IMG/VR virus record: IMGVR_UViG_3300005841_000939
Reading direction: 5' to 3' (one strand)
Source: a virus
Lineage: Duplodnaviria; Caudoviricetes
Length of the DNA: 64,000 nucleotides
This document shows positions 12,026 to 41,164 of the stretch, one piece after another (the stretch's first letter is position 1; every line of letters starts with the position of its first letter). A program made the position numbers and the translations under genes. Under the pieces are notes generated by a model. It made no database searches and had not been told where the DNA came from. It was given only the letters and a program-made list of their open reading frames with translations.

Positions 12026-12092
12026 TAATCTCAACAAAGTTTGCTCAAGTTATATTTTTTAGCGATGTAAACTTGTGCTGCATTTGAGATTA
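12026..12092 (-). ncRNA. Y RNA-like family, short copy 1 (no tRNA module)
   Basis: TAATCTCAA/TTGAGATTA terminal stem, AAATGC and TACAT motifs, second stem CAAGTT/AACTTG. Confidence 0.6.
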
Positions 12093-12768: not shown

Positions 12769-13091
12769 TAAACGTGTTCACTAACAAAACCACCATATTT
12801 AGTCAATTCATGTTGAACAACTAATTTACCAAAAGATTCCCTAACCCTAACATTACCAGTTATGCATGTCGCTATTCCAGAGCCATTTCCGAATTTATAT
12901 TTCGGAAGTCTTTTCATCACATCGTTTAAATGTTCAACTTTTGCATCTTCCCAACGAGTAGAATTAAGAATGTCATTATCAACAGGAATTGAGGTTTCAT
13001 ACTTTGTGCCAATTTCAATTTGCACAATCACTTTCTTAAAAAGACCTAGTCTTTTTACATTAAATCTAAAATTTCCTGTCAAATATTCCAT
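12708..13091 (-). CDS. hypothetical protein with an internal duplication
   Basis: two TG..R....Q.E....W.D units. Confidence 0.55.
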   Translation of the reverse strand: MEYLTGNFRFNVKRLGLFKKVIVQIEIGTKYETSIPVDNDILNSTRWEDAKVEHLNDVMKRLPKYKFGNGSGIATCITGNVRVRESFGKLVVQHELTKYGGFVSEHVYWWKDTTISTISQIFLGTTL

Positions 13092-19687: not shown

Positions 19688-19767
19688 ACGTGTAACTCCT
19701 GACCATTGGGTCTGAATAGTTGATAGCTTATATACTACTTACTTTATCTACAGCGTCAAATAAAGAA

Positions 19768-20550: not shown

Positions 20551-21906
20551 TTATTTATACTTTTTTTCTTTAAAATGTTCTATCAGACGATCAGGCGTAA
20601 TTTCATACTTATAATCTTGTAAAAAACGACCATGTTGAATGTCATGAGCCAATGATGCAAAAATCTTTGAAAAATCTTTGTATGGAACTGGAACTTTCAT
20701 ATCCGTGAACGCTTTAATTAAGCTATCACCTGAAACTCTCAATATCCATGTATGAGCATAGGTGTCATTCAAATGAAATAATGGCTTATCGAAAATATCA
20801 ATTATTTCTTTATTTGCTTGATGCACATGCAAGCACAAATCAACATACTCTGAAATTGATTCTTGAACTTTTCTAGCGGAACTATGTACTCGCTCCATGT
20901 TCTCTTTTGATTTGTCGTAAAAATAAATGTGCAAGCATTGGTGGCAATGCATTAACGCCTTCCATTCATTCTTATCAGTTATTTTTGTAAAATCTCCACC
21001 ATTGAAGAATAATGCTGGCAACCATACTTTTTCCATTGAAGGAAATTCAGAATCGTCATCATCCTTATTGATGATGATCGGCTTGAAATCATCACCAAAC
21101 AATTCTTTGTCAATTCCATGATCCTTCATGCAATTGACGAATGTGTTATAGTCGCCAGACACACATCCTTTATAAAATTCGGCTTCAAATCTTTCTTTAC
21201 TAATGTTATGCAGTAAAGGAGCATTCCTCTTCATTGCTTGTGAAGTTTTAGGATCAATCTTCAACTTATACCGAGCAACAAATTGCAACGCCCTCAAAAT
21301 TCTTAGAGGATCTTCTGCAAAACGATCATCTGCATTACCAACAGCTTTTAAAATCTTTTTCTTGCCATCGTTCTCTGCTGTTTTATTTGGAGCAATGATA
21401 CGTTGAGGCTGTGCAATTTCAATTGCAAATGCATTGATGGTAAAATCTCTACGCTGCAAATCTTTTTCAATTGGAATTGAAGGATCTACTGACACGACAT
21501 TTCTATCAGTGTCAAAACGAGGAATACTAATCTGACATTCTTTTGTCAAGAAATTATTAATCATCAAAATACCAAACGATTTACCAACCTCATCAATCTT
21601 TAAATTAAAAGTTGCAATCTCTTTTATTATTTCTGTAATTTTTTCATATGCCAATCCAGCCACACAAAAATCATAATCAATTTTCTTCGTTGAATTATAA
21701 TAGTAATATGGTTGATTTTTTGATAATCCTAGGATATAATCCCGAACCATACCACCAACAAAATACAGAGTGCCACCAGCAGCCTGAACAGCAGCACCCA
21801 ACAACAAGATTCGTTCATAATCTCCGATATTAGGAACGAATGACAAGTGAGGATGTCTGTTTGATTTAAGGGCGTCAAAAATCTGGAGATATGGTTGCTG
21901 GGTCAT
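20551..21906 (-). CDS. cca: CCA-adding enzyme / poly(A) polymerase family nucleotidyltransferase
   Basis: FVGGMVRD, DYDF, DLQRRDFTINAFA, RFAEDPLRILRALQF. Confidence 0.88.
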   Translation of the reverse strand: MTQQPYLQIFDALKSNRHPHLSFVPNIGDYERILLLGAAVQAAGGTLYFVGGMVRDYILGLSKNQPYYYYNSTKKIDYDFCVAGLAYEKITEIIKEIATFNLKIDEVGKSFGILMINNFLTKECQISIPRFDTDRNVVSVDPSIPIEKDLQRRDFTINAFAIEIAQPQRIIAPNKTAENDGKKKILKAVGNADDRFAEDPLRILRALQFVARYKLKIDPKTSQAMKRNAPLLHNISKERFEAEFYKGCVSGDYNTFVNCMKDHGIDKELFGDDFKPIIINKDDDDSEFPSMEKVWLPALFFNGGDFTKITDKNEWKALMHCHQCLHIYFYDKSKENMERVHSSARKVQESISEYVDLCLHVHQANKEIIDIFDKPLFHLNDTYAHTWILRVSGDSLIKAFTDMKVPVPYKDFSKIFASLAHDIQHGRFLQDYKYEITPDRLIEHFKEKKYK

Positions 21907-21969: not shown

Positions 21970-23661
21970 TTAGGACTTCTTCTTGATGGCCTTCTTGACA
22001 CCAGCCTTCGCAGCATCAACCACTGGACTTGTTTCCAGGGTAATAGTGTCAATCAACTTCACGAAGTCACCACCATTGTATGTTCCATTGGCGAACAGGT
22101 CAATAACAGTGAAGCAATCATCCGAGAAACCACCGATGTACAATACATCAGTTCCAGTCTTCACTTGTTGTGAAGTGTTAGGAGTCACGTCAATTGAAAC
22201 GAAACGTGCCTTAGGATTGCGACTCTTGAACTTCAACCATTCCGCGTGAGCCGAAGTGCCGTAGTCATTTGACATGTCGCGCCATGATTCATTGTCAGAA
22301 ACCATGATGATCAAGTCACCCTTGGCATTATCACGGTTCAACTTGCGGATTGGCGCACTGCATGAGGTTCCACCTGATGGCAAATGGGCGATGACATTTG
22401 AATTTGATACAACTGAATCACGAGGATTCAAGCGGCATGGAACAACATCATCACTGAAACAGATTACCTCTGCATCTGGATTCTTGCGCAAAACAGCCGA
22501 AGCCACCAATGCAGCAACATCGCGACAAGACACCTTTGAAGAAGTATTGCCACGGTTTCCAGTCACAGGAGAACCCATTGAACCTGACACGTCAACGCAT
22601 ACATACACCTTACCTGCGAAGGTTGGAATATTCTCGGTTGAGATTTCCAATGCGTCTTGCAACGCATTAGTGATTTGCGAAGGAATTCCTTCCTCAACAT
22701 TCTTGTATGCTGCCAAGAGTTGGTAAGGGAATACCTTACTCTTCTCAATTGATGCGCGATCACGGAGCTTATCCGAAACAGTGCCAATCATCTTGGAATC
22801 GTTGAAAACTCCTTGACGCAAGAAAGTATTCAAGTTCATGCGAGTTGCATGCCAAGGAGCATTCTTCGCAATTGCAGTCCACTCGGGTGTTCCGAGATTC
22901 AATGCAGTCAGAAGACGGAATTCCACATCAGGAATTTCTGAAATGTTGGCCTTACCAGAAAGAACAGAAGTCTTGAACTTCTCGTACTTTTGCACAGTTT
23001 CAGGAAGTTCTGACAAAAGGACAGTGGTTGCACGCCCGTGCTTGTCATTAACCATATCACTCTTGCGAGTAACAACCTTCTTGCCGATGAGATATGCGAA
23101 CAATGCAGCTTGCACACTATCACGAGGAGCAGGGTGAGCCATCTTGATCACGTCAGCAATTGATGGATCATTACCAACTGAATCCTTGAAGAGGGAATCA
23201 TCACGACGGGTCTTGAACCATGCATTGATGAGCTTCTTCACACTGGTACCGAAAGACTTACGTCCAACCTTACCAGAACGGATGATTTGACAGAAGTTAC
23301 GCAACATCTTACCGTTGTCGATAACTTGAGGGAACACTACCTTCAAAACACTCACATCCTTAGATGCGAGAATTGCACATAGAAGTGCAGGAGTGTCCTT
23401 CATGAAAGAGTGCTTGCGTGCGTAGATTGCAGTACGACCGATGAAAGTCGCAGGAACCTTGTTGCAGAGCGAGATGATTTCTGCAAGTTGATCACCAGCA
23501 GAAGTATAGAAGGTATTTCCCAAAGTACCAACGATGGCCATTTGCGCCAGCTTTTCGCGGTCGCCGAGGTCATACGCAGCCCCGCCAGCGTGGTTTACCA
23601 CAGTGGCAACGGGAGACTTGGACTTAGGAGTTGAGGAACCGAAGAGATTCTTATTAGCCAT
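21970..23661 (-). CDS. rsr: Ro60/TROVE-domain RNA-binding protein (Rsr) with C-terminal vWA domain
   Basis: NHAGGAAY, GTLGNTFY, MKDTPALL, NGKMLRNF, RMNLNT, VFPYQLLAAY, VDVSGSM, SDNESW; start placed at the ATG at 23661 (563 aa). Confidence 0.92.
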   Translation of the reverse strand: MANKNLFGSSTPKSKSPVATVVNHAGGAAYDLGDREKLAQMAIVGTLGNTFYTSAGDQLAEIISLCNKVPATFIGRTAIYARKHSFMKDTPALLCAILASKDVSVLKVVFPQVIDNGKMLRNFCQIIRSGKVGRKSFGTSVKKLINAWFKTRRDDSLFKDSVGNDPSIADVIKMAHPAPRDSVQAALFAYLIGKKVVTRKSDMVNDKHGRATTVLLSELPETVQKYEKFKTSVLSGKANISEIPDVEFRLLTALNLGTPEWTAIAKNAPWHATRMNLNTFLRQGVFNDSKMIGTVSDKLRDRASIEKSKVFPYQLLAAYKNVEEGIPSQITNALQDALEISTENIPTFAGKVYVCVDVSGSMGSPVTGNRGNTSSKVSCRDVAALVASAVLRKNPDAEVICFSDDVVPCRLNPRDSVVSNSNVIAHLPSGGTSCSAPIRKLNRDNAKGDLIIMVSDNESWRDMSNDYGTSAHAEWLKFKSRNPKARFVSIDVTPNTSQQVKTGTDVLYIGGFSDDCFTVIDLFANGTYNGGDFVKLIDTITLETSPVVDAAKAGVKKAIKKKS

Positions 23662-23763: not shown

Positions 23764-24411
23764 TTAAATAATTATTTTTTCAACTACGGTACTATCATCA
23801 ATGATGACTGCACCAAGTTGACCGTTACCATCCGATTTACCGCATTGTAAATCCACACAATATGCGTTTGGCTCAACGTCAATAACATGTGAATGAATGT
23901 GGCCGAAGATAACCGGTTTATCGCTGGTTTCACCAGGATATTTTTCTGATAATTTCATCCGAATTGGTTTACCCTCAGCATCAAAACCAGCAACCCATCC
24001 ATAGAAGAATCGGTCAAAAGGAACATTGTCCCAATCATGTTGAAATAGGGCAGCCGGGGCATGTGAAATTCCGACGTGTTCGGTTTTGAAATAATGGCGC
24101 TGCTTGTCTCGGGTATCACCAACACAGTTGAGAAGGGCAGTTTTAAATGCCTCAAAGTCACGATCAGTCAATTGTTCCGGAAAAACACGCTTCTCTTTGC
24201 GAATCTTTTTCAGATAAGCAAATTCGTGATTTCCAACTAGACGAATGCTGTTAGGAACTGATGCACAATAATTTAAAACATCAATTGGCTGAGGACCACG
24301 GTCAACGTAATCACCAACGAAAACGACCAGATCAACTTTTGAGAAATATGAATCAAGTTGACGAACCTTGTCGTAAACTCCGTGAATGTCACCAACAGCT
24401 AAGATACGCAT
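23764..24411 (-). CDS. calcineurin-like metallophosphoesterase
   Basis: GDIHG, GDYVDRG, GNHE, FGH motifs. Confidence 0.88.
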   Translation of the reverse strand: MRILAVGDIHGVYDKVRQLDSYFSKVDLVVFVGDYVDRGPQPIDVLNYCASVPNSIRLVGNHEFAYLKKIRKEKRVFPEQLTDRDFEAFKTALLNCVGDTRDKQRHYFKTEHVGISHAPAALFQHDWDNVPFDRFFYGWVAGFDAEGKPIRMKLSEKYPGETSDKPVIFGHIHSHVIDVEPNAYCVDLQCGKSDGNGQLGAVIIDDSTVVEKIII

Positions 24412-30505: not shown

Positions 30506-31285
30506 TTACTTGCTATATCTGCCCTTGTTGTCTCTTGGTTGATTTGCCCAATGTGGCAATGAACCTTGGACGTTCACTTGTACTTGAACTGATGCAGGAG
30601 TTGGTGTAGGAGCTGACAATGATTTTTGTACAGGTGCTGCAAGAGAATTGTTATATTCTGTTACATCTTGATCAGTGAATGCAGCCTTACTACCAAATGA
30701 ACGTGAACGGGTAACACTCTTACCTAATGTATCAATGGCACTCTTTGTACCCGCAGATGATCCTGCGTAAGTCATTGATGAACCCTTAGCAATACCAATT
30801 CGTTGAGCACTCAAAATTGCATCTTGATTAGCACCCAAAAATACAAATTCCCAATTATAAACTTCTTCTTGATGTCTGATCTTTTCAGCAATCGTCTTTG
30901 CTGTAGCCGTTCTACTCATATTTTCTTCACCGTCAGTCAAGATGGCAACGATAACCTTTGATGGACGATCCCATTCATTCATTTGTGATAGCTTTCTACC
31001 AATGGAATCAATTGTTTCATTGATGGCATCATACAAAGCAGTATTTCCATTTGGATAATAATGCTTTTGATATTCTAATGTTGGAATAGTGTTGATATTT
31101 ACGAAATCAAATAATGATCTAACGGAGTCACTAAATTTATTAAGAGTGAAGCTGACTTCACCTTGCAAATTCTTTTGTTCAGTGATGAATTGGTTTAATC
31201 CACCAACAGTGTCTGATGCAACGCGCCCCATTGATGAACTTTCATCTAGAACTATTGCGATTGCTGCGTAATTTTGTTTTGTCAT
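30506..31285 (-). CDS. vWA-domain protein
   Basis: VLDESSSM (MIDAS), TALYDAI, ILTDGEEN, FVFLGAN. Confidence 0.8.
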   Translation of the reverse strand: MTKQNYAAIAIVLDESSSMGRVASDTVGGLNQFITEQKNLQGEVSFTLNKFSDSVRSLFDFVNINTIPTLEYQKHYYPNGNTALYDAINETIDSIGRKLSQMNEWDRPSKVIVAILTDGEENMSRTATAKTIAEKIRHQEEVYNWEFVFLGANQDAILSAQRIGIAKGSSMTYAGSSAGTKSAIDTLGKSVTRSRSFGSKAAFTDQDVTEYNNSLAAPVQKSLSAPTPTPASVQVQVNVQGSLPHWANQPRDNKGRYSK

Positions 31286-32618: not shown

Positions 32619-32626
32619 AAGAAAAA

Positions 32627-33048
32627 ACATATGGTGTGCTATGCTGGGCCAAAGTCTATTGAGGTATATTCTTGAGAAGTCGGGCATACAACCTTTTGCT
32701 TATCAATTGCAACGCCCTCAAACCCACCGTTCCGTAAGATACTTGATGGGCAATTCTCATGTCGTCTGTTATATCAACTTACACAAGCTTTATTGGGTCG
32801 GAAATCATGCATTGCTGCAATCAAAAACCCCTTGCTCCCTGTAACTGCTTGCGCAATTTATGGGTTCTTTCGATGTAAGCCAATATCGTCAACTCTATCC
32901 TAGGGTTATAAGTCTGGACTGTTGCTATGCACTCCCTGATTGCTATTCAGTTCGCTGTGCTGCCAGAAACTCTTGAACCGTTTGCGCGACAGTTCTTCCC
33001 TTCGACACTCCTTAGATGATGCCTTGTTAAAGGCCACATCCCATATGC
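32627..33048 (-). ncRNA. large structured ncRNA (~420 nt), GOLLD/ROOL-class-like, family not verified
   Basis: terminal helix GCATATGG/CCATATGT, GCAA-tetraloop hairpins, further helices, no credible ORF on the array strand, flanked by tRNAs. Confidence 0.62.
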
Positions 33049-33052
33049 AAAT

Positions 33053-33283: not shown

Positions 33284-33595
33284 ATGAGAAAGACATTTTA
33301 TAATATTGCAATGCTTCGTTTAAAAACATTACGTGATGGACATACTTGTGTATTTTGTGGCCTAACATCTAAGCTAGGTAACAAGTCATGCCGAAATCTC
33401 ATAGAGATTCATCATATTATTGAACGTCAAGATGGCGGATCTAACGAAAGTTCAAATTTAATTCCATGCTGTTCCAATCACCATTCGCTTATCCATTCAG
33501 GAAGCATCAACGTTGATCGTTGGTACAAATCCACAAAAGGATGGCTATTGCGATGGACAGATGAAACTGGTGTTGAACACTATTCACCAGAATAA
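33284..33595 (+). CDS. HNH endonuclease, antisense to the array
   Basis: CVFCG...IEIHHII...GGSN..SNLIPCCSNHHSLIH. Confidence 0.82.
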   Translation: MRKTFYNIAMLRLKTLRDGHTCVFCGLTSKLGNKSCRNLIEIHHIIERQDGGSNESSNLIPCCSNHHSLIHSGSINVDRWYKSTKGWLLRWTDETGVEHYSPE

Positions 33596-33599
33596 AAAA

Positions 33600-33945
33600 T
33601 TGTTTGAATGGTGTGTTATTACACCAAAGAACCGGTTTTCTTTACTCTTAATCAAACACGAATTATAAAAAGACACATTGAAAAAGTAATGTATTGTCTC
33701 TTTATAAAAGGAGAATAACTCCAAAGTTTCGTTCTTAAACATGTAGCTGACTCCGGTCAAAGAGTAGGATTATGAATCCTTGCGCGGTTTGTTCAGAAGA
33801 GGTTGCTAGCTAATCCCTTCGTCGTCATACTTTATTTACCTTTTTTATCAGGACCATATGACAATCATCGGGCAAGCACCTTGCTATTCAGCGAATTCAC
33901 TCTTTAAAAGATGGCTACTTCTAAGCCGACTTCCCATTCAAACAA
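33600..33945 (-). ncRNA. 23S rRNA GTPase-associated-centre (H42-H44) mimic RNA with a large insert
   Basis: 12-bp terminal inverted repeat; GGAAGTCGGCTTAGAAGTAGCCATCTTTTAAAGAG at the 5' end and TTCTTTGGTGTAATAACACAC at the 3' end. Confidence 0.72.
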
Positions 33946-33951
33946 AAAGAA

Positions 33952-34108
33952 TTTCACGACAAAAGTGCCAAAGTAGACTCCTTGCGGATTAGCTGTGTCT
34001 ATCATTTCCACCATACTCCCAATTGGTGGGAGCACCGGGATTTAAACCACGGATGTACCTAAGTACGGCTACGGTTATATAATGTAAACTTTAACTGCAT
34101 TCGTGAAA
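33952..34108 (-). ncRNA. Y RNA-like (YrlA-type) with permuted class II tRNA module
   Basis: TTTCACGA/TCGTGAAA stem, GAATGC, TACAT; variable arm, T arm, closed acceptor TGCTCCC-ACCAATT-GGGAGTA, D arm. Confidence 0.75.
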
Positions 34109-34110
34109 AG

Positions 34111-34185
34111 TGGTGCGTCGTCTTGGAATCGAACCAAGTCCCGAGGATTAAAAGTCCCCTGCTCCACCATTTGAGCTTACAACGC
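34111..34185 (-). tRNA. tRNA-Lys(TTT)
   Basis: GGGGA-CTTTTAA-TCCTC arm, encoded CCA. Confidence 0.9.
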
Positions 34186-34189
34186 GTGT

Positions 34190-34501
34190 TTATTTCTTTG
34201 GTAAATTGCCAGTTATGAAAAATTTAAGACGTTGAAAAAAGCCCATATGAACTATTTCTTCATATGACATCAACATACTTTCCATACATGAATCTTTTAA
34301 CTTATTACTTTCTTCAATCTTTTTATTTTCTTCAATCAGTCTTTTATTTTCGGATTGAAGTGAAACATAATGCTTTTGTTGATATTCGATCAAACCAGCA
34401 TGAAATGCAGTTCCGCCAACCAAAATAAATTCACGAAGTGGAATTGATTGAGGCATTGAGTCTTGCATCTGTTGCGCAGCTTTTTCTAAATCTTTAGTCA
34501 T
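34190..34501 (-). CDS. hypothetical protein
   Basis: 103-aa ORF inside the array. Confidence 0.5.
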   Translation of the reverse strand: MTKDLEKAAQQMQDSMPQSIPLREFILVGGTAFHAGLIEYQQKHYVSLQSENKRLIEENKKIEESNKLKDSCMESMLMSYEEIVHMGFFQRLKFFITGNLPKK

Positions 34502-34669
34502 TTTATTTCTTTGTGATTGGTTTTAACGGACTTTGATCCATACCCTGGACCAAACTTTTCTATCTGCTTCTTATACCACAATGCATGTGATCTAAGCCTT
34601 AAGAAATCGCCAGGTCCACTTCCTTTTGGTATCGGAATTTTTCTGAACATGGCATCTCCTTTCTTAATT

Positions 34670-34744
34670 TGGTGGGTCGTCACGGAATCGAACCGTGTTC
34701 TCAGGATTAAGAGTCCTATGCATCGCCATTTATGCTTACAACCC
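34670..34744 (-). tRNA. tRNA-Lys(CTT)
   Basis: TAGGA-CTCTTAA-TCCTG arm, encoded CCA. Confidence 0.9.
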
Positions 34745-34748
34745 AAAT

Positions 34749-35036
34749 TTATATTAAAGATAGTGTTGATTCATCAAATAGGAATTCTTTTTTGACTTGT
34801 TCAATTGGAACTTTTATGACTTGTTCGTGAAATTGCCTAGTTTCTTTATAAGACGATTTTGAATGCTTATATACATGACGAATTAGCACCGTCTTTTCAG
34901 TGACCTTCGCAATTTTACCAAACATGAATGATCTATATTCCAATTCTACAAATAAAACCCAATCACCTGCAGCTAATTCATTGCCAAGAAAATCTTTGTT
35001 CATGGCGAAAGTATATGCAACCAATTTCGTTGTCAA
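34749..35036 (-). CDS. hypothetical protein
   Basis: 95-aa ORF; start uncertain. Confidence 0.5.
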   Translation of the reverse strand: MTTKLVAYTFAMNKDFLGNELAAGDWVLFVELEYRSFMFGKIAKVTEKTVLIRHVYKHSKSSYKETRQFHEQVIKVPIEQVKKEFLFDESTLSLI

Positions 35037-35420
35037 TTCTAAAAGGATACCTGGTTAAGCAGCAGGGTGAGGTTACGATTCTGTCGTCACAGACCGATTA
35101 AATATTCTTCACTCATCACAAACGCCAAACAGTCATCATCCATTCCATTATCAATTATGACTGGACCTGTTGCTTCTGCACCATACATTTTGATGGCATT
35201 TTCCATGGAATCTTCACACAGTTTTTTGAATTCTGGATATTCCATGATGATCACTTTATAATTCTAAGAGGATAAAATTTTGTTTCATCCTTCTTTTTAT
35301 TCTTTGGATTCTTACTACGTTTTTGTTCAGATTCATGCAAAAGTTTTGCATAAATTTTCTGAAACTCTTCTAACGTGATTCCTATATCGTCATCTTCTTT
35401 CATGATGAGTCTTTCTAAAA

Positions 35421-35496
35421 TGGTGGAGACGGCAGGACTCGAACCTGTAACCCTCTACGTGCAAGGCAGATGCTCTACCAATTGAGCTACGTCCCC
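35421..35496 (-). tRNA. tRNA-Ala(TGC)
   Basis: GGGGACG acceptor with G3-U70, CTTGCAC loop, encoded CCA. Confidence 0.92.
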
Positions 35497-35595
35497 ATTT
35501 TGTTTATTGATATTTAGCTTTCGCTATTTTCTTCTTCCATGATGGCCAGGAATTAAACTTTTTCTTAGCCTCTTTTAAAATTTGTGCAGATGATT

Positions 35596-36039
35596 TCATA
35601 TTTTATTGGCGAATGTATAAAACATTCCAGTCTTTGTGTCAATGAATTTATATTCCTCAACTTTATATTCAAAAACTAATGAAAATATTCCGTCTGTATC
35701 ATTTAAATCATGATCTAACTTAGTTCCATGATAGAGACCTGCCAGATAAATTTTAGTAAATTCAAGTTTCAATATTACATCACCATTTTTTGCTATTTGT
35801 GATGTAACAATTTTTTCTGGTTGTTTAAACATCAATTCAAGTGTTTTTGGATTTTTATCATCAACTAACATTTTTATTTTTAATGTATCTTTATTAGTGA
35901 AGTCAACCGTTCTCACAAGTGTTGTTAGTTCGTTCTTTGGAACTAGTTCTACGCCATTAGCATCAAAGGCTTCTACTAAAAATAGATATGATCTTAATGG
36001 ATCATTAAAAAGAAATTCTGGTTTTGGAATATTATTCAT
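35596..36039 (-). CDS. hypothetical protein
   Basis: start placed at MNNIPKPEF (36039); the longer ORF-track version runs through tRNA genes. Confidence 0.55.
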   Translation of the reverse strand: MNNIPKPEFLFNDPLRSYLFLVEAFDANGVELVPKNELTTLVRTVDFTNKDTLKIKMLVDDKNPKTLELMFKQPEKIVTSQIAKNGDVILKLEFTKIYLAGLYHGTKLDHDLNDTDGIFSLVFEYKVEEYKFIDTKTGMFYTFANKI

Positions 36040-36080
36040 ACAAGTAATTATACAAAATATATTACAATATGCGAGAAAAA

Positions 36081-36156
36081 TGGTTGGGGAGGAAGGATTC
36101 GAACCTTCAACTTCTGGATTCAAAGTCCAGCGTTCTACCGATTGAACTACTCCCCA
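36081..36156 (-). tRNA. tRNA-Gln(TTG)
   Basis: CTGGA-CTTTGAA-TCCAG arm, U1-A72, encoded CCA. Confidence 0.92.
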
Positions 36157-36165
36157 ATGAAAATT

Positions 36166-36247
36166 TGGTGTGCCTGAGAGGACTTGAACCTCCACCCTTT
36201 CGGACTAGTTTCTAAAACTAGCGCGGCTGCCATTACGCCACAAGCAC
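36166..36247 (-). tRNA. tRNA-Leu(TAG)
   Basis: CTAGT-TTTAGAA-ACTAG arm, long variable arm, encoded CCA. Confidence 0.92.
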
Positions 36248-36262
36248 ATGATGAAATTGAAA

Positions 36263-36349
36263 TGGTGTGTCCAAAAGGAGTCGAACCTTCACCCCTGTTA
36301 CGGGATTAGCACCTCAAGCTAACGCGGCTGCCAATTACGCCATAGACAC
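36263..36349 (-). tRNA. tRNA-Leu(GAG)
   Basis: TTAGC-TTGAGGT-GCTAA arm, long variable arm, encoded CCA. Confidence 0.92.
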
Positions 36350-36356
36350 ATAAAAA

Positions 36357-36417
36357 TCAAGACTAATATTTGAGAAGTTTTGTTGTTTCATAATGTAAAC
36401 TTCTGCGGCATTCTTGA
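36357..36417 (-). ncRNA. Y RNA-like family, short copy
   Basis: TCAAGA/TCTTGA stem, GAATGC, GAAGTTT/AAACTTC stem, TACAT. Confidence 0.6.
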
Positions 36418-36427
36418 AAAAATAAAA

Positions 36428-36522
36428 TGGCGCCCCAGGATGGATTTGAACCACCAACCTCTTCTTGATCCCCCAAGGGATGGCCTTGATCAAGAATCAC
36501 TCTACATTTGAGCTACCGGGGC
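36428..36522 (-). ncRNA. tRNA-like RNA with an extended, non-canonical anticodon arm
   Basis: normal acceptor, D and T arms and CCA; 9-bp TTCTTGATC/GATCAAGAA stem enclosing 17 nt. Confidence 0.65.
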
Positions 36523-36532
36523 ATATAAAAAA

Positions 36533-36607
36533 TGGCACCCAAGATAGGACTCGAACCTATAACATCCTGATTAACAGTCAGGCTCTCTACCATTGAGATA
36601 CTCGGGT
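36533..36607 (-). tRNA. tRNA-Asn(GTT)
   Basis: CCTGA-CTGTTAA-TCAGG arm, G73, encoded CCA. Confidence 0.9.
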
Positions 36608-36617
36608 ACAAAAAAAA

Positions 36618-36708
36618 TGGCTGGTAGTGAGGGACTCGAACCCCCATGATGTTTTTCACATCGGCTCGTTAACAGCGGGCTGCCTTACCAAATTCGGCAC
36701 AACTACCA
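36618..36708 (-). tRNA. tRNA with Asn anticodon (GTT) and a class II long variable arm
   Basis: loop CTGTTAA; variable hairpin GATGT-GAAAA-ACATC; G73; encoded CCA. Confidence 0.75.
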
Positions 36709-36720
36709 ATGAAAATAAAA

Positions 36721-36806
36721 TGGAGTCTGTAGCAGGATTTGAACCTGCGTGTGGTTTCCCAAACGGTTTTGCAAACCGTCGCTTTCAGCCGCTCAGCCAT
36801 ACAGAC
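36721..36806 (-). tRNA. tRNA-Cys(GCA) with a long variable arm
   Basis: ACGGT-TTGCAAA-ACCGT arm, U73, variable hairpin TGG-GAAA-CCA. Confidence 0.85.
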
Positions 36807-36812
36807 ATATAA

Positions 36813-36891
36813 TCGCAACAAAATTTAAAAAGTTTTGGTTTTTCCAGAGCAAGCTCGGGTATATTAGATGTAAACTTTTCAGCATTTGCGA
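36813..36891 (-). ncRNA. Y RNA-like family, short copy
   Basis: TCGCAA/TTGCGA stem, AAATGC, AAAAGTTT/AAACTTTT stem, TACAT, one internal hairpin. Confidence 0.6.
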
Positions 36892-36902
36892 AATAAAAAG
36901 AA

Positions 36903-37037
36903 TAAAGCGACAAAAAGTATGAAGTGGTTTTTCGTGTGTTAGCCGTTACACCACCACCCGTTATGGTCGGGCAGCCAGGAATCGAACCTAGATCACGTTC
37001 TCCGAATGAATGTACACCTCAAAAGGCATTCGCTTTA
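36903..37037 (-). ncRNA. Y RNA-like (YrlA-type) with permuted tRNA module
   Basis: TAAAGCGA/TCGCTTTA stem, GAATGC, TACAT; T arm CTAGGTTCGATTCCTGG, closed acceptor CTGCCCG-ACCATAA-CGGGTGG, D arm. Confidence 0.8.
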
Positions 37038-37039
37038 AA

Positions 37040-37116
37040 TGGTGGTCCCTCAGGGAATCGAACCCTAACCTCAGGTTTTTCAAACCTACGTGCATACCTA
37101 ATTACACCAAAGGACC
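37040..37116 (-). tRNA. tRNA-Phe(GAA)
   Basis: TAGGT-TTGAAAA-ACCTG arm, encoded CCA. Confidence 0.9.
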
Positions 37117-37133
37117 ATAATATCTTAAAAAAT

Positions 37134-37223
37134 TGGCGGATAGAGAGGGATTTGAACCCCCGGAACGTTTTCACGCTCATCGGTTTAGTAAACCGGCGCA
37201 TTCGGCCACTCTGCCATCTATCC
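37134..37223 (-). tRNA. tRNA-Ser(ACT), rare A34 anticodon
   Basis: Ser-type body nearly identical to 40811-40900; loop TTACTAA. Confidence 0.8.
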
Positions 37224-37232
37224 GTATGAAAC

Positions 37233-37306
37233 TGGTCGGTAATGATGGAGTCGAACCATCGCATTGGCCTTATGAGAGCCACGTTCTGCCGTTAAACTAA
37301 ATACCG
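37233..37306 (-). tRNA. tRNA-Met or Ile2 (CAT)
   Basis: TGGCT-CTCATAA-GGCCA arm, encoded CCA. Confidence 0.8.
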
Positions 37307-37310
37307 ATAC

Positions 37311-37386
37311 TGGCACGCTGGGCAGGACTTGAACCTGCAACACCTGGTTTTGGAAACCAGTGCTCTGCCGATTGAGCTACCAGCGT
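37311..37386 (-). tRNA. tRNA-Trp(CCA)
   Basis: CTGGT-TTCCAAA-ACCAG arm, G73, encoded CCA. Confidence 0.92.
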
Positions 37387-37393
37387 ATGAAAC

Positions 37394-37603
37394 TTAAAAA
37401 TCTTTCTCTTCAAGCAAATTTGTGCAACGACCTTCTGCAACTGCTCTATTTATGTCATCAAATTCTTTTTTGATTTCATCAAGCAATGCTTTCTTTTCTT
37501 CTTCTGATATATCAGAAGAATTTAACCTTTCTTCGGTTTTCTCATCCAAATGAATGCAACTTGAAATCATTCCTTCTGATAACCATTCCTGTGGAACTAT
37601 CAT
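37394..37603 (-). CDS. small hypothetical protein
   Basis: 69-aa ORF, ATGA coupling. Confidence 0.5.
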   Translation of the reverse strand: MIVPQEWLSEGMISSCIHLDEKTEERLNSSDISEEEKKALLDEIKKEFDDINRAVAEGRCTNLLEEKDF

Positions 37604-38205
37604 TTGTCTTCTTTCTCTAAAAGGTTGTTAAAAATGATTTTGCAAATGGCCTTGCCACGACGGTCAATATGCTTCCACTTGATCTTAAAAGAATCCGAAT
37701 CAATACCACCAAACATATTGGCATTTGAATGGATTTCAGCAAGACCTGCAATTAGAAGTGTTATTGCTTCTTTGCGTTTGCAAAATTCTTCAATTTGTTC
37801 TGCTTTGAGACGATGAATATCCATATCCAACCTAATGAGATTGGCAATTTGTTCATCACCTCCATGATCTAACCAAATTTGTGCAGAAATTTCCGCATGA
37901 TTTGGAAAATGAATGCGACCTTCGCTATCAGTTTCCTGACAGAATGGTTTGCCGCAATCATGAAAAAGGGCATACTCAAGAATTGTTTCGGTGTCTAACA
38001 GATTCCCTAAAATCTGTGACTTGTATAATTGAAACCATTCAGGGAGTCGCCAATTTGGCAACACCTATGTTTCACCTTTTATAAACTGAATCAACTCTTG
38101 AAGATGATTCTTGACTGATTCTCCGTGTTGGAGAATCGTTTGATGTTGATTTTGATTACAACCCTTCATCTTTTCGATGAGGATCTACTGAAAGTCCTGC
38201 TTCAT
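37600..38205 (-). CDS. HD-like phosphohydrolase interrupted by two in-frame TAG codons (readthrough gene or pseudogene)
   Basis: AAGGA RBS + ATG at 38205; TAG at 38185-38187 and 38065-38067; TILQHG...FHDCGKP...HFPNHA; ends at TGA. Confidence 0.6.
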
Positions 38206-38380
38206 GATGTTCCTTAAATGGTTGATGCGAGAGCGAGCGATGTTGCTATGCGTGAAAGTTCGTCATTTCTTTTACTATCAATTTGACCATTGTTCCATCC
38301 AATTTCTCGAATGTGAAATGCCAACGCCAAAGAATTTTCAAATTCTTCAACTTCAATTAATTTTTCTCCAACTCTAATCA

Positions 38381-38689
38381 TCATTTCAATCTTTCTGATT
38401 TTTGAATTGCGAGTTGTTTTGACGATTTAATTTTATTATACAAGTCATCAGGATGGAAATTTGGTTCCCATTCTTTCCCTTGTGTAATATGAAATTTTTC
38501 TGCCATCATGTGATGGGTTGGGCAAAGAGAAATACCATTCTCTTTGACATAGCCACCGTTTGGCATTTCATTTCGATCAGTTATGTGATGCGCATCAAGA
38601 TTTTCTTTAATGTCACAAAACAAACATTTGCCACCGTCTCGCTTGAAGACTGCGTTGCGAAATGCTGAACGAATTTCCTTCTTGTTCAT
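38381..38689 (-). CDS. HNH endonuclease
   Basis: VFKRDGGKCLFC...LDAHHI...NGISLCPTHH. Confidence 0.82.
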   Translation of the reverse strand: MNKKEIRSAFRNAVFKRDGGKCLFCDIKENLDAHHITDRNEMPNGGYVKENGISLCPTHHMMAEKFHITQGKEWEPNFHPDDLYNKIKSSKQLAIQKSERLK

Positions 38690-38738
38690 GGCTTACGACA
38701 TAAGTTTAAGCCTTGTTTTTATATGTCAACTGAAAAAA

Positions 38739-38890
38739 CACCTGGGTATTCGCTGTCTTTCAAACTCTGGTTAGTTGATGCATTCAACATCACCAATGCG
38801 CCAAGTGTGTATTGAAAATGCCGCAGTCAGGATATGCGCCAGCTTTGAACTTCTAGTTAGTTGATGCATCAACATCACTAATGCGCCTGA
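38739..38890 (-). ncRNA. tandem pair of ~65-nt structured motifs of unknown function
   Basis: two copies of GGCGCATTRGTGATGTTGA(A)TGCATCAACTAACYAG, each in its own closing helix, with a compensatory A-U/G-C change. Confidence 0.55.
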
Positions 38891-38901
38891 GATTGGCTTT
38901 T

Positions 38902-38977
38902 TGGTGGACAATGAGGGATTTGAACCCCCGACCTCTTGAATGTAAATCAAGCACTCTAGCCGCTGAGTTAATCGTCC
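38902..38977 (-). tRNA. tRNA-Val(TAC)
   Basis: CTTGA-TTTACAT-TCAAG arm, encoded CCA. Confidence 0.92.
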
Positions 38978-38994
38978 AAAAATTGAAATTATAA

Positions 38995-39137
38995 AGGCAG
39001 CTTTCAATCGCGACCATATCGTATAATTTCTTCCTGTTTTTTATCCATGATGGATCATCATGCTATGCTTTTGACTTGTTGCAAACAAGCAATGTTATGC
39101 ATTAACATTGTTAGCATCTAACCGTCGCTAGATGCCC
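38995..39137 (-). ncRNA. candidate multi-hairpin ncRNA
   Basis: four consecutive hairpins inside GGGCA/TGCCT ends. Confidence 0.4.
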
Positions 39138-39145
39138 AAAAAAGA

Positions 39146-39212
39146 AATACGACTAAAAGCGAATAAGAGGGGTTATCTTAAATGGATGTACTCCTATTCT
39201 AGCATTCGTATT
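39146..39212 (-). ncRNA. Y RNA-like family, short copy
   Basis: AATACGA/TCGTATT stem, GAATGC, GAATAGGAG/CTCTTATTC stem, TACAT. Confidence 0.62.
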
Positions 39213-39214
39213 AT

Positions 39215-39300
39215 TGGTGCCCATAGCCGGACTTGAACCAGCACCCCTGTTACGGGAGAGGATTTTGAATCCACCGCGGCTGCCATTACGCCATACGGGC
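39215..39300 (-). tRNA. tRNA-Leu(CAA)
   Basis: loop TTCAAAA, long variable arm, encoded CCA. Confidence 0.9.
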
Positions 39301-39342
39301 AAAAATTGATTGTCTAAAATGGTTGTGAATACTTTCGTTTAT

Positions 39343-39446
39343 AGAAATGGTCTGCCGTAGCACGTTGGCCATTTCTTTGACGGGAGCATTCATATCTAAA
39401 AGGTGCCAATAATATCCCCAAAGCTGCCGTAGCACGTTCTATGAGG
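39343..39446 (-). repeat. two hairpins sharing the 15-mer AACGTGCTACGGCAG
   Basis: identical 15-mer at 39352-39366 and 39424-39438, each capping a different basal stem. Confidence 0.6.
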
Positions 39447-39458
39447 AAGATGGCGAAA

Positions 39459-39532
39459 TTGCTGCGACACTTGGATTTAAACCAAGACTTTCCGATTTCC
39501 CCTCGGTGCTCTAATTATTAAGCTATATCACA
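39459..39532 (-). pseudogene. degenerate tRNA-like gene
   Basis: acceptor, D and T arms pair; anticodon loop GGGGAAA lacks U33; ends GCAA instead of NCCA. Confidence 0.55.
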
Positions 39533-39538
39533 ATAAGA

Positions 39539-39615
39539 TGGTCAGTATGAGAGGATTTGAACCTCTGACTTCTGGCTTCCAAAACCAGCACTCTTCCAGG
39601 CTGAGCTACACACTG
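39539..39615 (-). tRNA. tRNA-Pro(TGG)
   Basis: CTGGT-TTTGGAA-GCCAG arm, C1-G72, encoded CCA. Confidence 0.88.
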
Positions 39616-39623
39616 ATAAAAAG

Positions 39624-39725
39624 TTTCACAACAAAATAAAAAAGAAGTGCTCCCCAATAGAGCATCTGAGGTTTCCCTAAGATTGGAATCGAACCAATAA
39701 TGTATTCTTTTTAGCATTTGTGAAA
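39624..39725 (-). ncRNA. Y RNA-like with reduced tRNA module
   Basis: TTTCACAA/TTGTGAAA stem, AAATGC, TACAT; T arm ATTGGTTCGATTCCAAT, GAAA-capped stem, TGCTC/GAGCA hairpin. Confidence 0.68.
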
Positions 39726-39731
39726 ATGAAA

Positions 39732-39818
39732 TGGTGGGTGAAATAGGACTCGAACCTATGAAGTCATTAAAGACGGGACGTTTACAGCGTCCAGCAATTG
39801 CCGCTATGCGATTCACCC
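39732..39818 (-). tRNA. tRNA-Tyr(GTA)
   Basis: GGACG-CTGTAAA-CGTCC arm, long variable arm, encoded CCA. Confidence 0.92.
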
Positions 39819-39823
39819 AAAAA

Positions 39824-39964
39824 TATCACGACTAAATTGCGAAAGAAAATGGCTTGCGCCGAATCGGCTGTTCTACCGCTGAACTACATCACACCGAAAT
39901 GTGATGGTGGGATTTGAACCCACGACAGGCTGATGGAATGTAATCCTTCATTGCATTCGTGATA
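39824..39964 (-). ncRNA. Y RNA-like (YrlA-type) with permuted tRNA module
   Basis: TATCACGA/TCGTGATA stem, GAATGC, TACAT; T arm GTGGGTTCAAATCCCAC, closed acceptor CATCACA-TTTCGG-TGTGATG, D arm TAGTTCAGCGGTAGAAC. Confidence 0.82.
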
Positions 39965-39975
39965 AAAACTGAAAA

Positions 39976-40052
39976 TGGTCGGACATGCTGGATTTGAACC
40001 AGCGGTCTCTTGCTCCCAAAGCAAGCGCGATACCAGGCTACGCTAATGTCCG
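39976..40052 (-). tRNA. tRNA-Pro(TGG) second copy
   Basis: CTTGC-TTTGGGA-GCAAG arm, encoded CCA. Confidence 0.92.
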
Positions 40053-40056
40053 AAAA

Positions 40057-40131
40057 GCCGATCCGTCAAGATTTTAACTTGAATCTCCCAGCGTATAGTG
40101 CCAGGCATTCTTTACGTTGAACTACGAATCG
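40057..40131 (-). ncRNA. tRNA-like RNA with a 9-nt anticodon loop (CACTATACG)
   Basis: 7-bp acceptor, D and T arms; no GG in the D loop; no encoded CCA. Confidence 0.55.
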
Positions 40132-40146
40132 AAAAGTAAACTAAAA

Positions 40147-40223
40147 AGGCCCGACTGTCAAGATTTGAACTTGAATTTTCCAGCCATGACGGCCGGACGT
40201 TCTTTGCATTGAACTACAATCAG
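40147..40223 (-). ncRNA. tRNA-like RNA with a 9-nt anticodon loop (CCGTCATGG), paralogue of 40057-40131
   Basis: same D and T arm sequences, covarying acceptor stem; ends GCCT. Confidence 0.55.
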
Positions 40224-40228
40224 AAAAA

Positions 40229-40361
40229 GAAACGACTAAAAGCGAAAAGATGTATTACGCGCTCTACCGGTGAGCTAAACGAGCAAATTGGCGCCCGCTC
40301 CAGGAATCGAACCTGGTCCTCGTCCTTAACATGGATGTAATCCTTTCAAAGCATTCGTTTC
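40229..40361 (-). ncRNA. Y RNA-like (YrlA-type) with permuted tRNA module
   Basis: GAAACGA/TCGTTTC stem, GAATGC, GAAAGGAT/ATCTTTTC, TACAT; T arm CCAGGTTCGATTCCTGG, closed acceptor AGCGGGC-GCCAATTT-GCTCGTT, D arm. Confidence 0.82.
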
Positions 40362-40370
40362 AAAGAAAAG

Positions 40371-40501
40371 GTCTGACAAATATTAGAGAAATTGTTTTTT
40401 AATGCTACCGTTACACCATACACACCTTTCGATGTGCAATAGGATTCGAACCTATACCCTTTGATTATCGGTCAATGTAAATCTCTCAAAGGCATTCAGA
40501 C
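40371..40501 (-). ncRNA. Y RNA-like (YrlA-type) with permuted tRNA module
   Basis: GTCTGA/TCAGAC stem, GAATGC, GAGAGAT/ATTTCTC, TACAT; T arm ATAGGTTCGAATCCTAT, closed acceptor TGCACAT-CGAAAG-GTGTGTA, D arm. Confidence 0.8.
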
Positions 40502-40504
40502 TTG

Positions 40505-40580
40505 TGGTTGGCATACCAGGAATCGAACCTGGATCTTAACTTTATCAGAGTTATGTGATGAACCATTCTACTATACGCCA
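40505..40580 (-). tRNA. tRNA-Ile(GAT)
   Basis: TAACT-CTGATAA-AGTTA arm, encoded CCA. Confidence 0.88.
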
Positions 40581-40930: not shown

Positions 40931-41108
40931 AAAACGAAAAACCCTGAGACTTTTTGGTCCCAGGGTCTTGAGTCAGTCAGTTATGACCTTCTCAGTTGGG
41001 ACCACTTCCGTTTCTATCCAACGGATTTGAGCGGCAAGGATATGTATTAAATGCTACTTGAGCATTCCAGACCTTGCTTTTCATAATGAGTTGATGGGAG
41101 CGTTTCAT
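40931..41108 (-). promoter_or_regulatory. leader-peptide transcription attenuator heading the tRNA/ncRNA array
   Basis: 38-aa leader ORF 41108-40992; terminator 40931-40966 (10-bp stem + U tract); antiterminator GGTCCCA/TGGGACC. Confidence 0.68.
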
Positions 41109-41164
41109 GGCGTTATGTTGATATTTATATATAACTTATTCTAGCATGCAAGAGAAATTTTTTC

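Follow-up and report, generated by a model that had tools for sequence, protein, structure and literature searches.

A rhizosphere jumbo phage with a 262-kb (262,529-bp) genome carries ten YrlA-type small RNA genes between its tRNA genes, together with its own Ro60. These ten elements are very probably paralogous Y RNA genes, sharing a handle that would dock the phage Ro60 and bearing distal modules that would act as the effector or specificity end. Shown directly are their membership of the family, by sequence and by structure, the covariation, the number of copies, where they lie in the genome, and that Ro60 co-occurs with them.

YrlA (Rfam RF02553), a Y RNA that mimics tRNA and occurs in bacteria and mycobacteriophages, is a ligand of bacterial and phage Ro60/Rsr (Chen et al. 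2014, PMC4201824; Wang et al. 2018, bioRxiv 10.1101/312249). Because phage YrlA RNAs have already been published (Chen 2014; phiLo 2025), the present set belongs to a kind of system already known. Apparently new are the copy number, the embedding in tRNA arrays, and the existence of minimal forms.

The original prediction, made from the 64,000-nucleotide stretch analysed here (the window), listed ten minus-strand elements with a common layout. Exactly ten are present at those positions (see the table), and all follow the layout: terminal stem; RAAUGC; second stem; UACAU; variable insert; second stem'; U-rich tract; GUY; and terminal stem'. The regular expression RAATGC-N6-16-TACAT matches the window 11 times on the minus strand and not at all on the plus strand. 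The eleventh match (~41042-41067) is attributed to chance, because it has no closing stems, is missed by both covariance models described below, and lies in a leader/terminator region.

Covariance model R1 was trained on five long copies only. Searched against the 262,529-bp genome, it returned the five untrained copies as its next-best matches (47.6, 40.2, 39.6, 28.5, and 27.9 bits; E 1.6e-7 to 2.5e-3), beyond which the genome yielded just tRNA T-arm fragments with E of at least 0.07. The family-wide model R2 recovered the same ten from the whole genome (E 1.2e-22 to 1.4e-5), followed by a gap and then by matches with E of at least 0.037. The two covariance models, a kind of test that the original prediction had proposed, find these ten and none other in 262 kb.

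Table. The ten Y RNA genes, the Ro60 gene, and its neighbours (window coordinates).
Feature	Position	Strand	Matches	Remarks
Y RNA + tRNA-like module	40371..40501	-	R1 97.8 bits, R2 86 bits	7-bp acceptor stem, CGAAAG closing loop; 3 nt past tRNA-Ile
Y RNA + tRNA-like module	40229..40361	-	R1 119.9 bits; Rfam YrlA 32.6 bits, full-length alignment	7-bp acceptor stem, loop opens G-CCA; T arm identical at 17/17 positions to that of neighbouring tRNA-Ile
Y RNA + tRNA-like module	39824..39964	-	R1 98.3 bits; Rfam YrlA 37.9 bits	7-bp acceptor stem, closed loop; additional hairpin past D arm
Y RNA, compact tRNA-like module	39624..39725	-	R1 40.2, R2 60.2, Rfam YrlA 41.7 bits	Excluded from R1 training; T arm, short GAAA-capped hairpin, D-arm-like hairpin
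Minimal Y RNA (handle only, A-rich apical loop)	39146..39212	-	R1 47.6, R2 47.9 bits	Excluded from R1 training; starts 2 nt past tRNA-Leu
Y RNA + tRNA-like module	36903..37037	-	R1 125.1 bits; Rfam YrlA 22.5 bits	7-bp acceptor stem, loop opens A-CCA
Minimal Y RNA, small apical hairpin	36813..36891	-	R1 39.6, R2 46.6 bits	Excluded from R1 training
Minimal Y RNA	36357..36417	-	R1 28.5 bits; R2 33.6 bits (E 1.4e-5)	Excluded from R1 training
Y RNA + tRNA-like module	33952..34108	-	R1 99.2 bits	7-bp acceptor stem, loop opens A-CCA; T loop UUUAAAU; extra 3' hairpin
Minimal Y RNA	12026..12092	-	R1 27.9 bits; R2 39.6 bits (E 4.6e-7)	Excluded from R1 training; flanked by tRNA-Met and tRNA-Glu; separate three-tRNA cluster
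Ro60 gene (TROVE + vWA), presumed protein partner	21970..23661	-	Pfam, PDB matches	Start ATG at 23661
tRNA nucleotidyltransferase (CCA-adding enzyme family)	20551..21906	-	Pfam PolyA_pol 1.4e-11; PHROG 2244 1e-40	
Calcineurin-like metallophosphoesterase	23764..24411	-	Pfam Metallophos 9.9e-15; PHROG 246 1.3e-20	

The handle comprises a 7-bp terminal stem ending in an R-Y and an A-U pair; an internal loop, with AUG invariant on its 5' side and G on its 3' side; a second stem of 9 bp; and UACAU. Among the ten copies, 89.8% of cells are paired, compared with 63% after shuffling and 39-52% in slid controls, and 21 of the 26 pairs have changed on both sides (6 of 7 in the terminal stem). The purine-pyrimidine covariation originally described holds without exception: GAAUGC accompanies GUC in seven copies, and AAAUGC accompanies GUU in three. 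Extending the comparison to 85 distinct homologues, drawn from some 30 phage contigs, gives 93.1% of cells paired, compensatory change in 25/26 pairs, and a family covariation score of 0.70, against 0.18 for shuffled alignments and at most 0.12 for slid controls. Across backgrounds of 29-66% GC, conservation reaches 97-100% for AAUG, 93-100% for UACAU, and 97-99% for the GU of GUC, although these pairing and motif-conservation figures are somewhat inflated by an alignment (A4) fitted to the model with one pattern-chosen member per locus. The family-wide 5' consensus is CGAAUGC. The RNA structure of this family is under selection.

The elements align from one end to the other with the Rfam YrlA consensus (..CgaAUGC-stem-CUAc..T arm, acceptor hairpin, D arm..cUuGucG..) and are therefore YrlA homologues, as their earlier identification as Y RNAs implied. 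In the proposed search with a YrlA model, three copies scored 32.6-41.7 bits (E 7e-9 to 3e-6), but every score (best 41.7, 37.9, and 32.6) falls below the Rfam gathering score of 69 bits. Phages with published YrlA RNAs score in the same range, their best RF02553 matches being 36 bits in Cali (190 nt upstream of Ro) and 42 bits in CcrColossus. The strict published 5' motif GNCGAAN0-1G is matched by none of the ten copies, each lacking the G two bases ahead of the C; that position falls within the covarying stem. Five copies have the CGAAUG core and the others have AGAAUG, UGAAUG, or CAAAUG; RAAUG is common to all ten.

Six copies contain the YrlA tRNA-like module, with T arm, closed acceptor stem-loop, and D arm in that order; the other four are minimal, YrlB-like handles with an A-rich loop. 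In five of the six modules the T arm leads straight into a 7-bp acceptor stem, after which come U8-N9 and a D arm whose loop has GG, and in three the closing loop opens with N-CCA. Long forms throughout the family have an acceptor stem of at least 6 of 7 bp in 58/64 cases, and their loops open with N-CCA in 11, compared with about one expected by chance.

Resemblance to YrlA extends from the CGAAUGC-type 5' motif in the terminal stem, the UuGUCG 3' strand, and the second stem to the domain order and the strand shared with Ro60; the 7-bp acceptor stem is that of Mycobacterium smegmatis YrlA. There are differences as well. YrlA occurs in 1-4 copies within 4 kb of Ro60, whereas this phage has ten copies roughly 10-17 kb away and inside tRNA arrays; an invariant UACAU replaces the CUAc of Rfam, and CCA is genomically encoded in three copies. 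The second, shorter Y RNA of Salmonella Typhimurium and M. smegmatis, YrlB, also has the Ro60-binding motif and is processed together with YrlA out of a common precursor (Chen 2014). The minimal copies here, by contrast, have the complete two-stem handle of the long copies, topped only by an A-rich loop; M. smegmatis YrlB retains a possible T arm.

The presumed protein partner is a genuine Ro60. As originally predicted, the gene encodes Ro60, with Pfam matches above cut-off to vWA_Ro60 (68.9 bits, cut-off 27.7; E 6.6e-19) and TROVE (29.1 bits, cut-off 23; E 7.4e-7), that is, both the HEAT-repeat ring and the C-terminal vWA domain. Structural matches in the PDB are Rsr (2NVO, 1.5e-21), Ro60 (9NEN, 2.5e-19), and phiLo (9KOP, 5e-16), along with 1YVP. 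An AAAGGA ribosome-binding site precedes the start codon. The elements lie on the same strand, 9.9 to 16.8 kb distant; the working definition of Chen 2014 (same strand as Ro60, within ~4 kb) fits by strand, but not by distance. Each element is preceded at 2-13 nt by a tRNA or a further element, and eight of ten are also followed by one at 2-11 nt. From spacers of 2-13 nt, the predicted co-transcription with tRNAs would follow.

The family is kept in about 30 other phage contigs, from 29 to 66% GC, among them Mx1, a cultured phage of Myxococcus. Most of these contigs hold more than one copy (up to 7), and the copies mostly lie beside tRNAs: 57 of 78 homologues in other phages have a tRNA or element on the same strand at most 30 nt away. 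Ten is the largest set found in this multi-copy family, which occurs in many large phages that encode Ro60. The idea that this phage had expanded its Y RNAs to ten is thus right in number, but the number is the top end of a continuum: large relatives of the phage carry 4-7 copies, and for this family array embedding is normal. Ro60 homologues occur in 19/30 motif-bearing IMG/VR records (base rate in INPHARED, 383/50,697 phage records). Among records at least 90% complete the count is 9/10, which answers the original call for a co-occurrence check; the exception is G012, a complete 70-kb phage with two copies and no detectable Ro60. Conversely, contigs found through the Ro60 protein contain the RNA in 4/4 cases, as does Mx1. 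In relatives such as G014, three copies abut Ro60.

From these observations we infer a path for transcription, processing, Ro60 binding, and partner recruitment. The Y RNAs would be transcribed within polycistronic tRNA precursors and released by the enzymes that trim the flanking tRNAs: the RNase P cut at the 5' end of the next tRNA would create the Y RNA 3' end, and 3'-end processing of the upstream tRNA its 5' end. By homology, the conserved handle is where the phage's own Ro60 ring would dock, and the variable distal module presumably forms the effector or specificity end. In six copies this module would take the form of a tRNA elbow and an acceptor minihelix (T arm, 7-bp acceptor stem, D arm), the anticodon arm being replaced by the Y stem; three of these encode discriminator-CCA where the closing loop begins. 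M. smegmatis YrlA, with its 7-bp acceptor stem, undergoes RNase P cleavage and CCA gain in vivo (PMC4201824). The phage modules probably are cut in the same way, yielding two halves held by the handle and exposing a real CCA end; a CCA-adding enzyme is encoded beside Ro60. The four minimal copies would present just an 18-30 nt A-rich single-stranded loop. In this manner one Ro60 might form a choice of RNPs, whose most likely role in infection is to guide or hold back a host exoribonuclease (PNPase-type) and tRNA-handling enzymes. A search of the phage genome found no encoded PNPase/RNase PH domain, RtcB, or PF09414 RNA ligase, so any effector must be host-derived.

Thermus phage phiLo provides a precedent. 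In the parts of the report drawn on here (NAR 2025, PMC12135203), its Ro60 binds two phage Yrl RNAs (Yrl1/Yrl2) through a CGAA motif and complexes with host PNPase, the likely third partner; phiLo, like the present phage, has no PNPase of its own. Those parts place both RNAs directly upstream of Ro60 and describe no tRNA-like module or tRNA-array embedding.

Might the RNAs work independently of Ro60, as tRNA mimics? They could act as decoys or sponges, drawing off host enzymes or defence toxins that read the elbow, acceptor stem, or CCA end, the handle being a mere stable scaffold in place of the anticodon arm. We consider this unlikely, even though six copies have the full elbow and acceptor minihelix, three encode CCA, and G012 has copies without Ro60. 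(A preprint also ties a Ro60-like protein of phage Bas63 to counter-defence; bioRxiv 10.1101/2024.10.10.617714.) A mere scaffold has no need of invariant unpaired bases, yet 4/10 copies and 13/86 family members without the module keep the handle with its AAUG, UACAU, and GU. Moreover, the handle matches the YrlA motif implicated in Ro60 binding, and Ro60 accompanies the RNA in nine of ten complete genomes. Modules without an anticodon arm cannot decoy anticodon nucleases. The Bas63 protein (gp130 of this Felix O1-type phage) is Ro60-like, whereas here the protein is a TROVE Ro60 by its sequence, and the handle belongs to YrlA.

The spacing of 2-13 nt from tRNAs, and the U-rich tracts that follow the elements, would also suit cis-acting structured spacers, insulators or RNase entry sites whose only role is to organise how the long tRNA precursor folds and is processed, and which are then degraded. 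This is very unlikely: in these arrays the majority of tRNA junctions lack such an element; some homologues in other phages sit next to Ro60 and away from tRNAs; and a complete tRNA-like module plus YrlA handle, kept across 29-66% GC, far exceeds the needs of a spacer. Hardly credible is an origin as permuted or decayed tRNA genes, or as a MITE-like mobile repeat inserting between tRNAs. A circularly permuted tRNA gene would indeed run in the same order as the modules (T arm, acceptor 3' strand, CCA, linker, acceptor 5' strand, D arm). However, the anticodon arm with its 7-nt loop is absent, the Y handle standing in its place, so decoding is impossible; four copies have no tRNA part whatever; and at the element loci ARAGORN and the Rfam tRNA model made no calls except one 19-bit partial match. 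The terminal stems could pass for the inverted repeats of a mobile element, but they vary between copies and covary, with both sides changed in most pairs, rather than conserving a sequence. That is the behaviour of an RNA helix, not of an end recognised by a transposase.

The Ro60 gene itself has a CCA-adding enzyme family gene directly downstream and a metallophosphoesterase gene directly upstream. The tRNA/Ro60 region of Mx1 likewise holds a phosphoesterase.

Ten minus-strand elements, named here by their first window coordinate, lie exactly where the original prediction placed them and share one layout. Four to seven variable bases precede RAATGC, a 9–12 nt arm, TACAT, and an insert of 18–110 nt; in the 3′ part the arm's complement comes first, then a T-rich tract and G-T-Y, and last the bases complementary to the opening ones. 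The covariation claimed for the ends also holds: seven copies join GAATGC with GTC and three join AAATGC with GTT, with no exceptions. Scanning the genome for a loose stem-plus-RAATG pattern gave more than 200 chance matches, and became informative only once TACAT was required as well. The expression RAATGC-N6-16-TACAT matches the minus strand of the window 11 times and the plus strand not at all. (The eleventh match has no closing stems or helices, is unscored by both covariance models described below, and is treated as chance. It falls in a short leader, just upstream of the array's first tRNA, with a strong terminator-like hairpin at its end.)

A covariance model built from the copies, the approach originally proposed, recovers the whole set. 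Model R1, trained on the five longest copies only, was searched against the entire genome, and its ten top matches coincide with the ten elements. The five copies outside the training set scored 47.6 to 27.9 bits (E 1.6e-7 to 2.5e-3); the next-ranking matches are tRNA T-arm fragments (E≥0.07). Model R2, built from 86 homologues, most of them from other phages, finds the same ten (E 1.2e-22 to 1.4e-5), followed by a gap up to E≥0.037. In the ten-copy alignment, itself model-fitted, 89.8% of cells are paired, against 63% in shuffled sequences and 39–52% with slid partners, and both bases differ between copies in 21 of 26 pairs. The family is genuine, and this phage genome holds ten members of it.

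What kind of RNA is this? With the Rfam YrlA model (RF02553), the kind of check suggested originally, three long copies align over its full length, at 37.9, 32.6, and 41.7 bits, all below the gathering score of 69. These low scores are not disqualifying, because the same model gives only 36 bits for mycobacteriophage Cali and 42 bits for CcrColossus, both reported as having YrlA. (The Cali match sits 190 nt upstream of the Cali Ro gene.) The Rfam consensus reads, from the 5′ end, acggCgaAUGC, stem, CUAc, T arm, acceptor-like hairpin, D arm, the stem's partner, and cUuGucGccg. Element 40229 agrees in every block, including CGAAUGC and UAGUCG; RAATGC, TACAT, and GTY therefore line up with conserved parts of the YrlA consensus. 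CGAAUG corresponds to GNCGAAN0-1G, proposed as the Ro60 recognition site (Chen et al. 2014, PMC4201824). In a cryo-EM structure, phiLo Ro60 is contacted by the CGAA core (PMC12135203).

All ten elements thus carry one handle (terminal stem, RAAUGC, second stem, UACAU, and the closing GUY), and differ in what the handle encloses. A tRNA-like module is present in six copies (40371, 40229, 39824, 39624, 36903, and 33952). It runs from a 5-bp T stem, capped by a UUCRAWU-type loop, directly into an acceptor-like hairpin; two bases separate this hairpin from a D arm with GG in its loop. The handle itself stands where a tRNA has its anticodon arm. Five of the six modules have an acceptor stem of exactly 7 bp, and in three of the six the closing loop begins with a discriminator and CCA (G-CCA-AUUU, A-CCA-UAA, and A-CCA-AUU). 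Compared with the phage tRNAs, none of the module acceptor stems matches a particular tRNA. The T arms are closer: that of 40229 is identical at 17/17 positions to the T arm of tRNA-Ile, two genes upstream, and that of 40371 shares 16/17 with tRNA-Tyr. Such near-identity hints, on sequence grounds, that tRNA genes and Y RNA modules have exchanged sequence locally. The four minimal copies (39146, 36813, 36357, and 12026; 61–79 nt) are just the handle, capped by an A-rich loop of 18–30 nt.

The window corresponds, in reverse complement, to bases 70471–134470 of a 262,529-bp IMG/VR virus record (97% complete by CheckV; GC 35.9%). Sequencing runs containing the phage sequence are all DNA, from rhizosphere metagenomes; run searches returned no RNA-seq run. 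ARAGORN finds 30 tRNA genes in the window, every one on the minus strand, and 34 genome-wide, of which 33 encode CCA; Rfam adds three or four further tRNA-like matches. Two adjacent odd tRNAs, the tRNA-SeC and its tRNA-like neighbor, are alike and have enlarged anticodon regions. Large ORF-poor gaps lie within the array beside element 33952. A promoter and terminator scan of the arrays found sites no more numerous than in shuffled sequence, so transcription units are not definable. Compared with cultured phages by Megablast, the array region gave short tRNA matches only.

The predicted Ro60 gene encodes a protein with TROVE and vWA_Ro60 domains, above both Pfam cut-offs. Its PDB matches include Deinococcus radiodurans Rsr (1.5e-21), vertebrate Ro60, and phiLo Ro60, and its ATG start at 23661 has an AAAGGA site ahead. 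Together with TyrRS, IF3, a separate vWA protein, and the CCA-adding enzyme, Ro60 forms a translation and tRNA-maintenance island. The phage genome was also searched for RtcB, an RNase PH/PNPase domain, and PF09414 RNA ligase, and none of these was found.

Coordinates of elements, genes, and neighboring features in the window and in related records
Feature	Sequence	Position	Strand	Remark
Element 40371	window	40371-40501	-	
Element 40229	window	40229-40361	-	
Element 33952	window	33952-34108	-	
tRNA-Ile	window	40505-40580	-	
tRNA-SeC	window	40148-40223	-	anticodon UCA per ARAGORN; would be opal-suppressor-like
tRNA-like	window	40058-40131	-	Rfam only, 36.7 bits
tRNA-like	window	39462-39532		Rfam only
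tRNA-like	window	36431-36522		Rfam only
ORF-poor gap	window	33284-33951	-	
ORF-poor gap	window	32619-33052	-	
Leader	window	40938-41129	-	
Terminator-like hairpin	window	40969-40938		
Eleventh pattern match	window	~41042-41067	-	
Ro60	window	21970-23661	-	
tRNA nucleotidyltransferase (CCA-adding enzyme)	window	20551-21906		flanks Ro60
Metallophosphoesterase	window	23764-24411		flanks Ro60
TyrRS	window	13091-14314		Ro60 block
IF3 (translation initiation factor)	window	19163-19687		Ro60 block
vWA protein	window	30506-31285		Ro60 block
Tandem elements	L041 (G012)	19510-19780		
Element	Mx1 (L033)	45520-45625		
CDS WNM70101.1 (hypothetical protein)	Mx1 (L033)	45524-45646		
Handle and tmRNA regions	L012	12249-12386, 12647-13061		

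The association with Ro60 extends beyond this genome. A protein-based search for Ro60 yielded four IMG/VR contigs (43–49% identity; GC 32%, 52%, and 59%), all with R1 matches within tRNA arrays, one to four copies apiece. Conversely, a DNA pattern combining handle and T loop identified 32 stretches across 30 IMG/VR records. The co-occurrence with Ro60 that the original prediction had proposed to look for in other phages is evident here: 19 of the 30 records encode a Ro60 homologue, as do nine of the ten that are at least 90% complete, whereas any Ro60 match occurs in just 383 of 50,697 cultured phage records. A complete 70-kb phage (L041) with terminal repeats has two tandem elements, and no Ro60 is detectable in it by protein search or Pfam vWA_Ro60; this phage may rely on host Rsr. 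Copy numbers at E≤1e-3 reach seven (in a 392-kb record), six, and, in four records, five; the present genome has eight at this threshold and ten altogether. The 392-kb record carries three copies directly upstream of Ro60 and four others 12–30 kb off, and so bridges the canonical position next to rsr and the dispersed layout.

Family-wide comparison bears out the structure. A same-strand tRNA or sister element lies within 30 nt for 57 of the 78 homologues outside the window, and within 200 nt for 68. Lengths are bimodal, 60–85 nt and 102–168 nt. Among 85 distinct sequences, 93.1% of cells are paired, 25 of 26 pairs show compensatory change, and the covariation score is 0.70 (0.18 for shuffles; at most 0.12 for slid controls), figures that lean high because the alignment is model-fitted and the pattern chose a single member at each locus. 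Invariant positions are AAUG, UACAU, the T loop, one D-loop G, and the GU of GUC. At least six of seven acceptor base pairs form in 58 of 64 long forms, and in 11 the loop opens with N-CCA, roughly tenfold more than chance predicts. Mx1, a cultured Myxococcus phage, encodes a Ro60 44.7% identical and has two copies, at 45168–45293 and 45520–45625, in a tRNA array 11 kb away; one overlaps a CDS (WNM70101.1) that is probably a mis-annotated RNA gene.

Several other readings can be weighed against this conservation. The elements are not a mobile repeat, since their terminal inverted repeats covary rather than staying conserved; nor are they permuted tRNA genes, which the absence of an anticodon arm rules out. 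The same absence rules out decoys for anticodon nucleases, though some modules may be decoys for enzymes acting on the acceptor end or elbow. A decoy role independent of Ro60 would draw on the tRNA resemblance, but leaves the invariant unpaired handle bases unaccounted for in copies that have no tRNA part, and is distinctly unlikely. That the elements merely space the tRNAs is less probable still: spacers would not account for conservation over 29–66% GC, or for copies that sit beside Ro60, distant from tRNAs.

A Y RNA family bound by Ro60 is the likely reading. Judged from sequence, the evidence shows a conserved handle of two stems, homologous to the part of YrlA that binds Ro60; distal modules that vary; close packing among tRNAs; and genome-level linkage to Ro60. 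Because the spacers are 2–13 nt, the Y RNAs would be expected to be excised from the tRNA precursor by tRNA-processing enzymes. The handle, on published precedent, would then bind phage Ro60. Mycobacterium smegmatis YrlA is cut by RNase P, and Rsr immunoprecipitates yield two halves, the 5′ half CCA-ended (PMC4201824). On this model, copies with 7-bp acceptor stems would be RNase P substrates, which is consistent with the encoded N-CCA in three copies and with the adjacent CCA-adding enzyme. By analogy with D. radiodurans, Salmonella, and phiLo, the RNP probably engages host PNPase. More speculatively, the A-rich loops of the minimal copies could be single-strand binding sites. A larger proposal is tentative and, as one joint claim, rather unlikely: the paralogues would be non-redundant, each module linking the one Ro60 ring to its own host or phage partner, and the set serving as a combinatorial RNP toolkit to protect the 34-tRNA pool from host tRNA-directed defences; and array-embedded Y RNA sets would be general, and undescribed, in large Ro60-encoding phages. 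The modules would be six different tRNA look-alikes, three maturing to split RNAs with a genuine CCA end, and four single-stranded-loop forms; PNPase, RNase P, the CCA-adding enzyme next to Ro60, and toxins that attack the acceptor end are candidates for the partners.

The usual picture of Y RNAs in bacteria and phages is of one to four genes beside rsr. In contrast, a single phage here has ten, and the same handle family is multi-copy within the tRNA arrays of many large phages; phage Y RNAs have therefore been missed by genome annotation, as the Mx1 copy exemplifies. YrlA RNAs as such are established in phages: Chen et al. reported them in 22 (PMC4201824), and PMC12135203 adds CcrColossus and phage G as well as binding of phage Yrl RNAs by phiLo Ro60. 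A preprint guessed that some "tRNA genes" beside a Ro60-like gene are Y RNAs (bioRxiv 10.1101/2024.10.10.617714). Neither multi-copy, tRNA-array-embedded YrlA-type organisation in large phages nor the ten-copy extreme was found in the main texts searched; minimal handle-only paralogues and recurrent encoded CCA were likewise not found in the literature searched.

In the ten elements a constant Ro60 handle carries modules that vary, a natural series usable for testing the Y RNA tether model, and the 7-bp acceptor stems with encoded CCA offer a direct route to testing RNase P processing. Both tests are feasible in Mx1, which has a tractable host and two copies. A different insert occurs in a relative, the 59% GC contig L012: one handle encloses not a permuted module but an almost complete tRNA whose parts follow the normal order (D arm, AAU-bearing anticodon arm, T arm, and an acceptor of about 4 bp). 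Just downstream of Ro60 in the same contig, the next element is followed by a tmRNA gene.
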